The translations under genes were made by a program, and so were the position numbers. 64,000 nt of DNA from a virus. The notes beneath the pieces were generated by a model. That model saw only the letters and a list, made by a program, of their open reading frames with translations. It made no database searches and was not told the DNA's origin. The DNA lies in the IMG/VR virus record IMGVR_UViG_3300042564_006854, positions 4,579 to 68,578 of that record; one strand, written 5' to 3'. Each line of letters opens with the position of its first letter. Position 1 is the first letter of the stretch. This document shows positions 43,717-47,297 of the stretch, in pieces.

Positions 43717-44193
43717 TTAATAAATTTGGTAATTATTAATTTCTATTTTAGAGTCAGTCTGATAAAAATCACTATATTCTATTCTTCCTCTGCATGACTT
43801 AGGAATATCAGATGCCGTATCATCAGTTTTGACGCGACCATCCTCAATATAGATATATTTCCAGCGGTATGCTGTACAAAAATCAGTTGTTCCGGTTTCA
43901 GATAAAATAATAGAGACTTCACTAAAAAAATCAGAATCTGACATGTCTGAATAATTAGAAAATCGAATAGCTGCTTTACCGCTCTTAAAAAGTTCAATCT
44001 TTTCTTGGTCAAATAATCTTACTTGATCATCATTACAATATTGCCACTCTTTGTCAGTTTGTCTAAGTGGGCTTCCATCATAGTGAATGTCACCACGCGA
44101 ACCGTCAGTGAATGTAACATTGCCGCTCATTGAATATTTAGAAATTGTCTTAATTTCACCAGTAGATATGTGTTTAACTTTTCTTCCTATCAT
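43717..44193 (-). CDS. YxIY-tail family protein
   Basis: 158 aa; ends ...EINNYQIY; N-terminal 55 aa paralogous to ORF 46287 (MIGRKVKHISTGEIKTISKYSMSGNVTFTDGSRGDIH vs MVGKKVQHRVTLEIKTIAEYSISGSVKFTDGTSGDIH). Confidence 0.5.
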   Translation of the reverse strand: MIGRKVKHISTGEIKTISKYSMSGNVTFTDGSRGDIHYDGSPLRQTDKEWQYCNDDQVRLFDQEKIELFKSGKAAIRFSNYSDMSDSDFFSEVSIILSETGTTDFCTAYRWKYIYIEDGRVKTDDTASDIPKSCRGRIEYSDFYQTDSKIEINNYQIY

Positions 44194-44195
44194 TG

Positions 44196-44489
44196 TTAAT
44201 AGATTTGATAAATTGAAGTAGTTACTATTTTTTCCTTTTTTGGTTTACTTGTTACTTTAAAGAAACCTTCCTTTTCATATCGATCAATCTCTTCAGGTGT
44301 TGCATATCTCCATTGACTAGTATCACATGAATACGATTCATTATCTTCTGTCTTGTTATCAGGATACCTTGGTGTTGATTCTGGACAGACTGATCTACTG
44401 TCTTTAAATTGTTTAAAACAATAATCCTTCCAAGAATTACTATAACTGCTGTCATCTAAAACAACTACATATTCGTTAGCTAATATCAT
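44196..44489 (-). CDS. YxIY-tail family protein (WRYATPEEI subfamily)
   Basis: 97 aa; ends ...TSIYQIY; WRYATPEEIDRYEKEGFFKVTS shared with ORFs 44995 and 45292. Confidence 0.5.
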   Translation of the reverse strand: MILANEYVVVLDDSSYSNSWKDYCFKQFKDSRSVCPESTPRYPDNKTEDNESYSCDTSQWRYATPEEIDRYEKEGFFKVTSKPKKEKIVTTSIYQIY

Positions 44490-44491
44490 AA

Positions 44492-44992
44492 TTAATATAT
44501 TTGGTAATTTGATGTAACCCCAGTAGAATTCTTTAGAGTAGTATATTGCTCAAAGGTTAATGTGTAATCATATGGATATTCTACATCATCCCAATCAAAA
44601 TTACCTGATCGATTTATTCCAATTACTTCCCAGTTACGTTTGAAATAGTCAGATTCCTCTACTCGGTCTTCTGATAAGTGACTTAGGATATCTACTACTT
44701 CATCATCTTCACAATCATCAAGTCGGATACAATATGATGAAGGCAAAGTGCTCAATTGATCTTCTTTTTCAAGAATGTCAAGAGCTTCCTCGACAGTATA
44801 TAGAATATAATTATCATCAAACTCTCTTAATGAGACTATTTCATCACCACTACTAATTCCATGATAGTCATATTCATAATCATACTGTGACCAAGAGGTT
44901 ACGGTTTCCATTAGTCTAATTAAGTCGTCCCAACGAGGATGGCTTATTTTTTGAACAAGGAAAGAGTCTATATTTTTTTTAACAGATACCAT
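44492..44992 (-). CDS. YxIY-tail family protein
   Basis: 166 aa acidic; ends ...TSNYQIY. Confidence 0.45.
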   Translation of the reverse strand: MVSVKKNIDSFLVQKISHPRWDDLIRLMETVTSWSQYDYEYDYHGISSGDEIVSLREFDDNYILYTVEEALDILEKEDQLSTLPSSYCIRLDDCEDDEVVDILSHLSEDRVEESDYFKRNWEVIGINRSGNFDWDDVEYPYDYTLTFEQYTTLKNSTGVTSNYQIY

Positions 44993-44994
44993 AT

Positions 44995-45288
44995 TTAATA
45001 AATTTCGTAATTAGTAATTTTATTTGGACAATCAGTTACTTTGACTGGGCCATCATTTTTATCGTATGCTTCTATTTCCTGAGGAGTAGCATATCTCCAA
45101 TCAACACCTTCGCCAAATTCATGACTGTCGGACCAACTAGAAGTTGACCGACCAGTATTTGGGCAATACTCTGGTCTTACGTAGTTATCAGTTATTCTCT
45201 GTTGTAATACCCAGCCATTCCAATTATTGGTTTCCGAGCGGTCGGTTAATGGAACGATATACTCTCCTTTTTGAATTGTGTTTGACAT
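44995..45288 (-). CDS. YxIY-tail family protein (WRYATPQEI subfamily)
   Basis: 97 aa; ends ...ITNYEIY. Confidence 0.5.
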   Translation of the reverse strand: MSNTIQKGEYIVPLTDRSETNNWNGWVLQQRITDNYVRPEYCPNTGRSTSSWSDSHEFGEGVDWRYATPQEIEAYDKNDGPVKVTDCPNKITNYEIY

Positions 45289-45291
45289 TAG

Positions 45292-45597
45292 TTAATAAAT
45301 TTCGTAATTAGTAGCGTTAATTGGTTTAATTGATGTAACATCAAATGGCTTACCTAGTCGATCATACTCTTCTATTTCCTGAGGAGTAGCGTATCTCCAG
45401 TCAGTTAATCGATCCCCTGAATTAAATGTTAAACCACAATTTGAATTTGTTGAATTTCCTTCAAGATCAATATCTGGCAAAAGATATGCAGAATCGACTC
45501 TCTGTTTAAAACAGTAATTTTCCTTTGCGCAAGAGGTATCAAACAACCCAGATCGATTAATAGTTACTGTAACAATATAGTCATTTTCTTTAAACAT
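45292..45597 (-). CDS. YxIY-tail family protein (WRYATPQEI subfamily)
   Basis: 101 aa; ends ...NATNYEIY. Confidence 0.5.
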   Translation of the reverse strand: MFKENDYIVTVTINRSGLFDTSCAKENYCFKQRVDSAYLLPDIDLEGNSTNSNCGLTFNSGDRLTDWRYATPQEIEEYDRLGKPFDVTSIKPINATNYEIY

Positions 45598-45610
45598 ATT
45601 CTTTATTTTT

Positions 45611-45685
45611 GTGATTGAGACAGGATTCGAACCTGTATTCTTAGTAACACCTCGTGAACTACTGTTGCCATTCAGTCACTCAACC
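45611..45685 (-). tRNA. tRNA-like gene (anticodon arm irregular; isotype undetermined)
   Basis: Minus strand GGTTGAG-TG-ACTG-AATGGCAA-CAGT...ACAGG-TTCGAAT-CCTGT-CTCAATC-A: acceptor (with one G-U), D and T arms are perfect; the anticodon region folds only as a 4-bp stem with a 12-nt loop. Confidence 0.5.
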
Positions 45686-45713
45686 ATAAAAAAGGGAGAC
45701 CTGTTGATCTCCC
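45686..45713 (-). terminator. rho-independent terminator (minus strand)
   Basis: Minus-strand GGGAGA-TCAACAGG-TCTCCC followed by TTTTTTATGG after gene 45732-46208. Confidence 0.5.
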
Positions 45714-45731
45714 TTTCTGTGTGATAGACGA

Positions 45732-46208
45732 TTATTGTCCTTGTAAGAAAGAAGCCATTTCGTTTAACAACATTGCCTTTTGATCTTCTTCCGAAAGGAA
45801 CTTTTGGAATTTCTCTTTGTAAGAGTTTAATTTGTCCAAAGTCTCTTTGTGAGTAAGGATGTTGATACGTAGTGTAATGTCTTGTTTCCAATCTGAAACA
45901 CTACCGCCGCTGATTTCAAATACTGGAAATGTTGTAATTCCCAATTCTGATGCTGCATCATTGTACGCAGCTCCACGACCTCTAACAGAAGAGAAAGCTT
46001 TGATTAGGTTTCCCACGTTAGTCTCTTTTTTGATGTCGCCGAAGCCTTCCAAGTTACCACTTGTTTTGTACTTGCTGTCAGACACATGATCAAGAGATTT
46101 GATCTTTGCTTCTAATGCTTGAAGGATAGATGGAACATTTGTTGTGTCCATTAATGCAACTTCACTTGATACTGTTGCTTGCGCAGTTGTTTTTGCTTTT
46201 GTAGCCAT
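45732..46208 (-). CDS. hypothetical protein (158 aa)
   Basis: ORF with an Ala/Thr-rich N-terminus. Confidence 0.45.
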   Translation of the reverse strand: MATKAKTTAQATVSSEVALMDTTNVPSILQALEAKIKSLDHVSDSKYKTSGNLEGFGDIKKETNVGNLIKAFSSVRGRGAAYNDAASELGITTFPVFEISGGSVSDWKQDITLRINILTHKETLDKLNSYKEKFQKFLSEEDQKAMLLNEMASFLQGQ

Positions 46209-46286
46209 TTTACTTTGTTTTTGTTTTTAATTATTAATTGATTTCTAAGTTATTATACTCTTTTTTGGTTAGATTAAAAATTTTTT

Positions 46287-46574
46287 TTAAAAAATTTTAT
46301 AATTATTAATAGGTTGAGGTTGGTCATCATTATAATAGACCCAGCATTTACTAGACTGTCGTGTTGGATCTAATGCAATATGAATATCACCAGATGTGCC
46401 ATCAGTAAATTTAACGCTTCCGCTAATTGAATATTCAGCAATTGTCTTGATTTCAAGAGTAACCCGATGTTGAACCTTCTTCCCTACCATTTTAAAAAAT
46501 TGGATAATTTGAGATTTCGCTAGTAAATACTCCCATGATTGGATATTTTTGATAGTCTTTAGCATTTGCTTCAC
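46287..46574 (-). CDS. YxIY-tail family protein
   Basis: Ends ...INNYKIF; the real start is probably the internal Met at about 46490 (MVGKKVQH...), 2 nt after the upstream stop. Confidence 0.45.
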   Translation of the reverse strand: MKQMLKTIKNIQSWEYLLAKSQIIQFFKMVGKKVQHRVTLEIKTIAEYSISGSVKFTDGTSGDIHIALDPTRQSSKCWVYYNDDQPQPINNYKIF

Positions 46575-46740
46575 GTTTAATATTTGAACTAGTATATCCG
46601 CTCTCTACATAGTGATCTCCGTTAGACGTGATATATTCACTTACCCAAACGTCAGATCTACTTGTTAGATGATCAAATTTGATAAGTATATCATCACTAG
46701 TTAAATACCATTTACCCTTTATTAATTCTTCTTTTTTCAT
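46492..46740 (-). CDS. YxIY-tail family protein
   Basis: 82 aa; ends ...ISNYPIF. Confidence 0.45.
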   Translation of the reverse strand: MKKEELIKGKWYLTSDDILIKFDHLTSRSDVWVSEYITSNGDHYVESGYTSSNIKREANAKDYQKYPIMGVFTSEISNYPIF

Positions 46741-46741
46741 T

Positions 46742-47056
46742 TTAAAAAATTTGATAGTTTGAAATTTTGTGTGAACCTTCGATCATTTGAAAAAATTCAT
46801 CAATTGAGAGAATATTGTCAAAGTAGTCAGAGTCATCCCAACACTCATAACAATCATAGGTATCATAACCATAGTATTCCCAGTGGTCTCCATCGAAGTC
46901 TCCATTAAATGCCTCATTCATAATATTGAGACACTCTGACCATCTTGGGTGAGAGCTATTAGATTTAACACCAAAACTTGCAGGTAATTTAGATTTTATA
47001 TCCATGATTATTAATTTAGTATATCGAATACGTTGTAATTTCACGTGAGCCTTCAA
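46742..47056 (-). CDS. YxIY-tail family protein (SHPRW-ECLNIMNE subfamily)
   Basis: Ends ...ISNYQIF; paralog of ORF 47016 (SKLPASFGVK.NSSHPRWSECLNIMNE...SIDEFFQMIEGS). Confidence 0.45.
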   Translation of the reverse strand: MKAHVKLQRIRYTKLIIMDIKSKLPASFGVKSNSSHPRWSECLNIMNEAFNGDFDGDHWEYYGYDTYDCYECWDDSDYFDNILSIDEFFQMIEGSHKISNYQIF

Positions 47057-47297
47057 TCATTTGAAAAAATTCATCAATCGACAGGATTACAGCAAACGCT
47101 GAATGATCATCATGGCCATCATATCGACAACCCTTAGTCATACCATAATATTTGTACCCATTTCCATAAAAATGATCACCGAGTGATTCATTCATCATTG
47201 AAATACACTCTCTCCATCTTGGGTGAGAGTTATCGGTCTTTACTCCAAAAGATTTTGGCAATTTAGATATATTACTATTCATATTAATATTATACAT
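47016..47297 (-). CDS. YxIY-tail family protein (SHPRW-ECISMMNE subfamily)
   Basis: 93 aa; ends ...ITTYSIY. Confidence 0.45.
   Translation of the reverse strand: MYNINMNSNISKLPKSFGVKTDNSHPRWRECISMMNESLGDHFYGNGYKYYGMTKGCRYDGHDDHSAFAVILSIDEFFQMIEGSREITTYSIY

Follow-up and report, generated by a model that had tools for sequence, protein, structure and literature searches.

Unrelated cargo proteins of encapsulins and bacterial microcompartments (BMC) carry a short terminal peptide on a flexible linker, and the receptor of that peptide is encoded alongside. The ssrA, FtsH, and Lon tags are C-terminal degrons in which a free hydrophobic or aromatic C-terminus stands on a flexible linker, and SspB is a small (approximately 160 amino acids, aa), dedicated ssrA adaptor with a disordered segment. 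In T4-type phages, the small, highly diverse, and fast-evolving proteins of a variable island share one short terminal targeting peptide (PMC3012670). The present analysis concerns a set of small open reading frames (ORFs) in a viral DNA stretch of 64,000 nucleotides (IMG/VR record IMGVR_UViG_3300042564_006854, positions 4,579 to 68,578; hereafter, the window). These ORFs end, directly before the stop codon, in the motif Y-x-[IV]-[YFW], here called the tail, whose residues are numbered backwards from the terminal residue (−1). The tag-and-receptor logic that is proposed below for these tails and a neighboring "hub" gene has precedents in the capsid targeting sequence (CTS) of phage T4, in encapsulin cargo peptides, and in ssrA/SspB; no component found here is related to them.

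Thirteen small minus-strand ORFs of the window end in Y-x-[IV]-[YFW]-stop (Table 1), which corresponds to about 10% of its ORFs (13 of about 123). An earlier reading of the window, made from its sequence alone and hereafter called the sequence-only reading, had listed 11 such endings. All 11 were found in place, but the list was incomplete, as the ORFs at 43424-43714 and 43182-43430 bring the set to 13. Its run of nine consecutive ORFs in 43717-47297 does consist of nine tailed ORFs, but these are interrupted by the tail-less, 158-aa hub gene at 45732-46208. All-against-all BLASTP agreed with the suggested division into subfamilies, one of them a WRYATPEEI trio: when ORFs are named by their lowest coordinate, family A comprises the N-terminal part of 43717 and 46287, family B (WRYATPEEI) comprises 44196, 44995, and 45292, family C comprises 46742, 47016, and 44492 (the latter with two tandem C-type domains), and five ORFs are singletons. 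The N-termini of the 13 proteins have nothing in common; their common element is formed by the last five residues, and the idea of a C-terminal tag shared by otherwise unrelated small proteins was thereby upheld, with distinct bodies in BLASTP and the same tail. Searches of the tailed proteins against Pfam and PHROGs yielded one SH3-like match, one sub-threshold Imm30 match, and otherwise PHROGs of no stated function.

In a non-overlapping set of 123 window ORFs of at least 45 aa, Y-x-[IV]-[YFW] formed the end of 12 ORFs and occurred at 7 of 18,656 internal positions (3.8e-4; binomial P = 1e-25). For the stricter motif [NT]-Y-x-I-[YF], eight C-terminal and zero internal occurrences were found in the window ORF set.

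Loci in other phages, designated by L numbers, were reached via family B, a pattern scan of IMG/VR, and neighboring genes; the contigs with tails represent metagenomic phages of 24-37% GC. In related phages, the tail was also present on well over a hundred further small proteins. Pooling of the window and 13 loci gave 80 unique tailed proteins of 67-170 aa (median 90) with 42 BLAST-distinct bodies. L010, a locus syntenic with the window, contains 11 tailed ORFs; in L013 and L103, 15 of 48 and 12 of 35 ORFs, respectively, are tailed. Among the relatives, as many as 15 tagged ORFs occur in one locus of 12-20 kb, and one genome of 175 kb contained about 30 tagged genes. Among the 120 stretches listed by the IMG/VR DNA-pattern scan, 13 contained at least one and 10 at least two tailed ORFs, numbers that do not represent an estimate of prevalence.

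Codon usage in the tails was used to distinguish selection on the peptide from selection on the underlying DNA. Counts were pooled over 119 tails that matched a slightly broader end pattern and included a few false positives. Position −4 was encoded by TAT (Tyr, 60), TAC (Tyr, 49), or TTT (Phe, 10), Ile at −2 by ATT (46), ATA (45), or ATC (13), and the stop was TAA in 89, TAG in 24, and TGA in 6 cases. Variation of third codon positions with conservation of the amino acids, as described in the sequence-only reading, was thus seen again. Within single genomes, Ser at −3 was encoded by both AGT and TCA (four and three times, respectively, in L139; twice and once in L135). Since AGT and TCA interconvert only via another amino acid, this mixture indicates selection on Ser itself, and neither a DNA motif nor gene conversion would be expected to produce it. 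The variants YELW, YEVW, and YDIW retain the chemistry of the tail but not its bases. A stop codon typically 2 nt from the next ATG had also been proposed; this spacing holds for 5 of the 13 window ORFs, while the others show 1, 3, or 9 nt or an overlap, and 43182 and 46287 have no following gene. Tails without a following gene also occur at many array ends in other phages, and no comparable consensus was found upstream of genes without a preceding tail. In other phages, homologues retain the tail with different nucleotides, which is the opposite of the loss of tails with retained junction nucleotides that would have spoken for a DNA signal. Together, the varied synonymous sites, the tails without a downstream gene, and the absence of a consensus at non-tail junctions led to rejection of a translation-coupling or junction signal as the main cause of tail conservation. 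In agreement with the sequence-only reading, these codon patterns argue that selection acts on the tail peptide.

Two further features of the tail codons were observed. Tail Tyr codons are rich in TAC (45% at −4 versus 16% in the protein bodies), for which avoidance of ATG in tAT-Gaa accounts only in part. In phages with EPxYEIY-type tails, some downstream genes begin at the ATG within tAT-Gaa of the tail (L013 10284, 16027, 17869), and proteins that start in this way have N-termini such as MKSI... and MKYT....

The anatomy of tailed proteins was analyzed in family B. A profile search retrieved 44 homologues, nearly all of 93-103 aa, of which 37 end in Y-x-[IL]-[YFW] after a variable linker. 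Linkers that precede tails vary in both sequence and length, from 4 to about 15 residues. In an AlphaFold model of family B, built on the profile alignment, residues 1-90 had a predicted local distance difference test score (pLDDT) of 88-98, whereas residues 91-101 scored 51-56 and showed no secondary structure. According to this model, the tail is an appendage outside the folded body and, placed on a low-confidence linker, looks like a C-terminal short linear motif. Foldseek comparison of the family B model with the PDB gave no match below E = 1.

Three fused two-domain proteins were informative on the position of the tail. At the domain junction of the 44492-44992 product, which combines two C-type domains, the internal tail has decayed to SSYCIR, and the fusions L013 15588-16040 and L013 16027-16539 contain ...EPTYEIL-I-MKYTKEQ... 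and ...EPNHEIS-N-MKYQ..., respectively. This decay of internalized tails indicates, at the level of sequence, that the tail depends on a free C-terminus. Orthologues were 66% identical in their bodies, 59% in the linkers, and 76% in the tails, with changes in the tails limited to −5, −3, and the choice of Tyr or Phe at −1. The logo of the 80 pooled tails reads E/I at −7, P/N/T at −6, N/Q/T at −5, Y at −4, E/Q/x at −3, I at −2, and Y/F/W at −1. Residue −3 is free (E, Q, K, P, S, N), Asn (38) and Gln (12) are the commonest residues at −5, and Tyr at −4 in 80 of 80 tails follows by construction, as the stricter pattern used for pooling requires Tyr. Among 190 tailed proteins, which are soluble, mildly acidic, and beta-rich in composition with enrichment of G, Y, W, S, and N, a hydrophobic 18-residue segment was found in one, as compared to 20% of other small ORFs.

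Tails differ between phages in a genome-specific manner, and each such flavor is common to unrelated bodies in the same genome (Table 1). The ending of family B proteins follows the genome rather than the body: it is TNYEIY in the window, EPNYEIY in L013 and L150, and SYLIPMIEKLNN in L009. Flavors that change in concert while synonymous sites are not homogenized within the genome point to a shared, co-evolving reader of the tail rather than to gene conversion. In L009 (IMGVR_UViG_3300017747_002194, 4706-17258, 28% GC), about 16 small ORFs have other common C-terminal endings, which are longer and amphipathic-helix-like (..SYLIPLIKxL.., ..IYKKLLN) and one of which stands on a family B body. These endings may represent a second, parallel tag system.

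A candidate for such a reader is the tail-less hub gene of the main array. Clustering of ORFs of tail-rich loci identified the hub in the window, L010, L017, L087, and L103, and 23 further loci were fetched by the hub alone, by exact-protein look-up (7 loci, L135-L141), by an IMG/VR profile search (15 loci, L142-L156), and from GTDB (1 locus, L157). All 28 loci have tailed ORFs at a distance of up to about 1.3 kb upstream of the hub, often also downstream, and in 26 of 28 loci the nearest upstream ORF was tailed. Even if 40% of local genes were tailed, the chance of 23 independent adjacencies in 23 loci would be near 1e-9. The tail genes are thus obligatorily linked genetically to the hub gene. 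Hub loci have 23-43% GC and mixed backbones; L137 and L139 encode PolA, whereas L138 and L010 are syntenic with the window, which encodes PolB. In L142, a relative of window ORF 2160-2447 (4659-4913, end EPTYSIY) lies directly upstream of the hub gene. Close relatives of the window phage (L001-L007), with 64-84% identity in the flanking gene 47355-48095, contain neither tails nor a hub at the locus. The most divergent hubs pair with the most divergent tails ([SN]H[FY]NF[IM]P in L155 and NxFKIY in L137), and flavor tracks hub clades, in a set of 28 loci that is too small to separate covariation from phylogeny.

Conservation of the hub is far above that of the tailed genes, with 102 clusters at 41-98% identity. 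Pfam and NCBIfam searches with the hub gave no match, and its sole PHROG match, phrog_2574 (function unstated in PHROGs), covers the C-terminal half only. The only counterpart of the hub in GenBank phages was a Bacillus phage protein, matched in its C-terminal half only and without tails around its gene. The three best PDB matches of the hub profile were all to TssB/VipA, at E = 0.037-0.13 and limited to C-terminal helices, and none of 55 hub members matched Pfam T6SS_VipA at E up to 1. The single hub match in GTDB genomes lies on a contig that was binned as Micavibrio but probably represents phage DNA assigned to the wrong bin. In the lineage of L017, L103, L147, L148, and L150, a stretch of about 550 nt without an ORF of at least 40 aa lies between the hub and the last tail gene before it, and may contain a small ORF, a regulatory region, or an RNA; the corresponding distance in the window is 78 nt.

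With a probability of roughly one half, the tail is interpreted as a docking tag by which many small, fast-evolving proteins of the phage are held to one shared partner, for which the hub is the most likely candidate. In this view, a flexible linker carries a short linear docking motif, the N-Y-x-I-[YF] pentapeptide with its free, aromatic C-terminus, which dozens of small, soluble, and mutually unrelated phage proteins have acquired; its partner would most likely be the conserved helical protein of about 150 aa encoded at 45732-46208. Such an arrangement would constitute a hub-and-spoke module with one conserved receptor and many fast-evolving tagged clients, in which docking might result in co-localization, delivery of bound targets, timed removal, or packaging. 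From gene order and sequence, we infer that the tail may physically bind the hub, its candidate receptor. An invariant loop of the hub, Y-K-T-x-G-N-L-x-G-F-G-D-I-K-x-E (residues 47-62), is a conjectural binding site. A more specific version, in which the hub collects dozens of rapidly diversifying small proteins via a co-evolving five-residue tag while their bodies bind different host or defense targets that are brought to one fate or place, is tentative and has clearly lower odds. Examples of such a fate or place would be a protease, to which they are delivered in the manner of an adaptor or PROTAC, and the site of phage replication, where they are concentrated.

Several observations weigh against docking to the hub. 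Only genetic linkage connects the two, and a conserved gene next to an early, hypervariable region could account for it. Some tailed genes lie far from the hub (2160-2971 in the window and the region in L013), and lineage-specific flavors fit co-evolution with a host-lineage-specific partner equally well. In addition, phages of the L009 type have other common endings, and no hub was seen in 20 kb of L009.

The tail could alternatively dock onto a host component, either a cytoplasmic protease or unfoldase, for which it would act as a C-terminal degron that limits protein lifetime, or another conserved host hub, with the hub gene of the phage as a mere neighbor. The anatomy of the tail, a flexible linker that ends in a free hydrophobic or aromatic C-terminus, is indeed that of a C-terminal degron, N-Y-x-[IL] loosely resembles the ...NYALAA end of ssrA tags, and the flavors could track host lineages. 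ClpS is the adaptor of the ClpAP N-degron pathway, and L135 encodes a ClpS homologue (7565-7819) 2 kb upstream of its tail array and hub, a proximity that may be coincidence. However, docking onto a host component leaves the linkage to the hub in all 28 loci, across unrelated backbones, unexplained, and flavors differ strongly among phages of similar GC content although the proposed host machines are highly conserved; this explanation is considered unlikely. An AAA ATPase encoded in the window (7648-8589) was ruled out as tail receptor, because it is also present in relatives without tails at this locus.

Loading of diverse small proteins into the capsid for co-injection, through a virion or prohead targeting signal that would be the C-terminal counterpart of the T4 CTS or of encapsulin cargo peptides, is improbable. 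The T4-type portal gene of the window is 7 kb away, small, soluble, diverse, and fast-evolving proteins in a variable island would fit this role, and the combination of linker and terminal peptide is like that of encapsulin cargo tags. Yet in L137, L139, and L140 the module lies on the same strand beside replication genes (helicase, PolA, DnaB) and not in head modules, and its presence both in PolA-type loci and in loci syntenic with the window, with its PolB and T4-type portal, shows that it is not tied to one phage type. About 30 tagged genes in a 175-kb genome are many for capsid cargo. The motif TAGTATWAT, which precedes many other genes, is missing from most tail genes of the window. Finally, no sign of a prohead-protease site was found in the window tails, in which [LI]-x-E is not conserved and −3 varies.

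Mimicry of a sliding-clamp-binding motif, by which proteins would be recruited to, or would block, the beta clamp of the host or a phage clamp, has a very small probability. The bacterial clamp-binding consensus, reportedly established by Dalrymple in 2001, is Q-L-[SD]-L-F, and [NQ]-Y-x-I-[YF] parallels it in its sequence of amide, hydrophobic, free, aliphatic, and aromatic residues and in its often C-terminal location; Gln, moreover, is the second commonest residue at −5. The T4 proteins gp33, gp55, and gp43 bind gp45 through C-terminal hydrophobic tails. However, the window PolB ORF (58796-60232) ends in ...LELEEEENV, without the motif, the ligase of L013 ends in ...NIDRNSYE, and no tailed protein exceeds 170 aa or contains an enzyme domain. 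Tyr at position 2 is atypical of the clamp motif, dozens of clients per genome far exceed any known phage clamp interactome, and the hub linkage would again be unexplained.

Similarly slim odds are assigned to the tail as an inherited structural element, the last beta-strand or an oligomerization strand of a single, very divergent superfamily, instead of a docking tag. Many bodies look like small beta-rich domains, with one SH3-like Pfam match and weak SH3 matches, and an R-x-A-T-x-E-E segment is common to several families. This scenario conflicts with the predicted lack of structure of the tail and its detachment from the confidently modeled body, with the variable linker, with the different architectures and sizes of the tailed proteins (67-170 aa, 42 BLAST clusters), and with the occurrence of the same body with a different ending in another genome. 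Homo-oligomers formed through the tail are conceivable. A conserved nucleic acid, with the peptide as by-product, would be either a junction for cassette shuffling or, in a host that lacks Shine-Dalgarno sequences, a signal for coupled or re-initiated translation of the next gene; this explanation could draw on A/T-rich codons that mostly lie just before the next ATG, the complete absence of Shine-Dalgarno signals, gene starts inside tAT-Gaa in L013, and TAC-rich Tyr codons, but is hardly credible and largely refuted by the scrambled synonymous sites with fixed amino acids, Ser at −3 from both AGT and TCA in one genome, the conserved chemistry of YELW and YEVW, tails at array ends, non-tail junctions without a consensus, and the decay of internal copies.

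Table 1. Tailed ORFs and hub-associated elements of the window (window coordinates; ORFs of the main array in order of transcription, followed by distant ORFs), and tail flavors by genome.
Feature	Position	Strand	Description
Tailed ORF	47016..47297	-	93 aa, family C (SHPRW), end ITTYSIY; first gene of array; orthologue L010 6825-7088 ends ITNYPIY
Tailed ORF	46742..47005	-	87 aa from ATG 47005, family C, end ISNYQIF
Tailed ORF	46492..46740	-	82 aa, body singleton in window, end ISNYPIF; orthologue L010 7365-7610 ends INNYEIY
Tailed ORF	46287..46490	-	67 aa, ATG 46490 (1 nt past preceding stop), family A, end INNYKIF; followed by intergenic region
Promoter-like GAGTATAATA	46251..46260	-	Upstream of hub gene; one mismatch to recurrent TAGTATWATA
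Tail-less hub gene	45732..46208	-	158 aa; conserved helical protein, linked to tail arrays in every examined locus
Intrinsic terminator hairpin and U-run	45689..45718	-	Directly after hub gene; -20.6 kcal/mol, z = -6.4
Tailed ORF	45292..45597	-	101 aa, family B (WRYATPQEI), end ATNYEIY
Tailed ORF	44995..45288	-	97 aa, family B, end ITNYEIY
Tailed ORF	44492..44992	-	166 aa, two tandem C-type domains; internal remnant SSYCIR, end TSNYQIY; orthologue L010 9205-9708
Tailed ORF	44196..44489	-	97 aa, family B, end TSIYQIY
Tailed ORF	43717..44193	-	158 aa, family A N-terminal domain and extra domain, end INNYQIY
Tailed ORF	43424..43714	-	96 aa, MWRFKTKEEF family, end GENYEVW, TAG stop; orthologues in L010, L138, L103
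Tailed ORF	43182..43430	-	82 aa, end TENYNIF; last gene of array, no gene start after it
Tailed ORF	2699..2971	-	90 aa, LPxxWxI-type body, end EPAYEIY; far from main array; own AAGTATTATA motif 6 nt before ATG
Tailed ORF	2160..2447	-	95 aa, end LGQYQIY
Flavor of window, L010, L138			[IT]-x-N-Y-[EQ]-I-[YF]
Flavor of L013, L103, L148, L150			E-P-x-Y-E-I-Y
Flavor of L139			N-N-x-Y-S-I-Y
Flavor of L135, L140, L154			x-Y-S-I-F
Flavor of L136			N-x-Y-P-I-[YF]
Flavor of L137			N-x-F-K-[IF]-Y
Flavor of L155			[SN]-H-[FY]-N-F-[IM]-P

The window has a GC content of 33% and encodes a T4-type portal (54406-56124), a partial family-B DNA polymerase, NAD-salvage enzymes, PhoH, an SPFH protein, and numerous small ORFs. 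At the DNA level, no close match was found in GenBank phages, with the exception of tRNA. The nearest relatives of the portal, at 31-37% identity, are encoded by huge uncultured phages (LR7565xx), Prevotella Lak phages, and Tenacibaculum phage PTm1. A host among the Bacteroidota is plausible, based on the indirect evidence of start codons without a Shine-Dalgarno signal, a portal like those of Lak and Tenacibaculum phages, and Bacteroidota-like lipoprotein signal peptides.

The PolB ORF (58796-60232, minus strand) covers only the C-terminal part of the enzyme: its extreme N-terminus matches profile positions 146-238 of 453 in Pfam. The exonuclease/N-terminal part must therefore have its gene elsewhere, and the polymerase gene may be split. 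The next ORF downstream (57667-58803, minus strand) looks primase-like from its sequence. A 542-aa leucine-rich repeat (LRR)/Laminin_G_3 protein is encoded on the plus strand at 8669-10297, and its N-terminal module is duplicated: its first 45 residues show 71% identity with the beginning of a 64-aa ORF (11086-11280, plus strand) that lies 800 nt downstream.

A tRNA gene at 43072-43145 (minus strand; Rfam tRNA, 61 bits; labeled "tRNA-Pyl" by ARAGORN), preceded by AAGTATTATA at 43157-43166, has the anticodon CTA and would read amber TAG. Recoding of TAG is known from related huge Bacteroidota phages. Twelve of 117 window ORFs, one of them the tailed ORF 43424-43714, still terminate at TAG, and the standard code yields an uninterrupted portal gene, so that recoding, if it occurs, would have to be incomplete or restricted to genes that lie outside the window. 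Rfam alone detected a second tRNA-like gene (45612-45685, minus strand; 40.9 bits, gathering score 29), which ARAGORN did not call and which is situated between the terminator of the hub and the following tail operon.

The motif TAGTATWAT occurs at a fixed distance of 5-6 nt before the ATG of at least eight window genes, including those for the AAA ATPase and an M28 peptidase and the tailed ORF 2699-2971. Its sites, all on the minus strand, include 644-653, 2977-2986, 8595-8604, 11046-11055, 17084-17093, 30597-30606, and 39805-39814, and 47 matches with at most one mismatch were counted in the window, versus 25 expected. The motif looks like a phage promoter element, from which mRNAs would be leaderless or nearly so, and is missing before most genes of the main tail array.

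Small ORFs of no assigned role make up most of the genomes of large phages and cannot be grouped by homology. The tag defines a class across more than 40 unrelated families of such ORFs and points to a single conserved candidate receptor. Searches of GenBank phages by tblastn with three tailed body families gave no match, and no description of such a tail system was found in the literature on shared C-terminal motifs, including a comparative review of jumbo phages. If the docking interpretation is correct, the module would represent a new way for phages to organize accessory proteins, with many clients on one hub, and the tag would mark a functional class among otherwise unannotatable, "dark matter" phage genes. 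It would also allow such effectors to be searched for in metagenomes by a sequence rule, and its lineage-specific flavors would be naturally orthogonal peptide-receptor pairs of possible use as a tool.

Among known systems, the T4 CTS of IPI, IPII, IPIII, and the variable IP locus resembles the tail in that diverse small proteins of a variable island, here absent from L001-L007, have only the tag in common, and in that the window phage has a T4-type portal. The CTS differs from the tail in being N-terminal, about 10 residues long, helical, and removed by the prohead protease, whereas the tail is a C-terminal pentapeptide that needs a free end. There is no sequence similarity between the two, and the tail module adjoins a dedicated 150-aa gene and, in PolA-type phages, replication genes. 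Encapsulin cargo peptides share with the tail their location on a linker at the C-terminus of unrelated bodies. The receptors of encapsulin and microcompartment peptides are an HK97-fold or BMC shell, whereas the hub is small and helical without a shell-like fold, and no HK97-fold shell gene adjoins the tails as a receptor gene; the motifs of these systems are also longer, have other sequences, and serve one to a few clients, in contrast to dozens per genome here.

With ssrA/SspB, the tail shares a C-terminal N-Y core and a hydrophobic end, and the hub, of 150 aa with a disordered N-terminus, recalls the adaptor. The tail, however, is gene-encoded before its own stop and ends in Y, F, or W, whereas ssrA is added co-translationally by tmRNA and ends in L-A-A; the hub has no detectable similarity to SspB. 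The clamp motif QL[SD]LF has the same residue classes at all five positions, but differs by Leu instead of Tyr at position 2, by the preference of tails for N over Q at position 1, and by the number and kind of clients in clamp interactomes.

A likeness to the Y-x-F termini of outer-membrane proteins (OMP) that are sensed by DegS, suggested in the sequence-only reading, extends to the aromatic C-terminus and a Tyr a few residues upstream, but did not hold further. Tail bearers are cytoplasmic proteins of 67-170 aa without a beta-barrel or signal peptides, hydrophobic segments are depleted among them as described above, and their invariant Tyr is at −4 rather than −3. PDZ ligands of classes I-III also differ, since PDZ domains fix the terminal residue and the second before it, whereas the tail leaves −3 free and fixes −2 and −4. 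The large multigene families of poxvirus ankyrin/PRANC (F-box-like) proteins and cellular F-box proteins on Skp1, although part of the eukaryotic ubiquitin machinery, without homology to the tailed proteins, and equipped with a folded docking domain of about 50 residues instead of a pentapeptide, show the same logic as proposed here, in which variable, target-binding bodies are joined to one hub by a C-terminal docking element.

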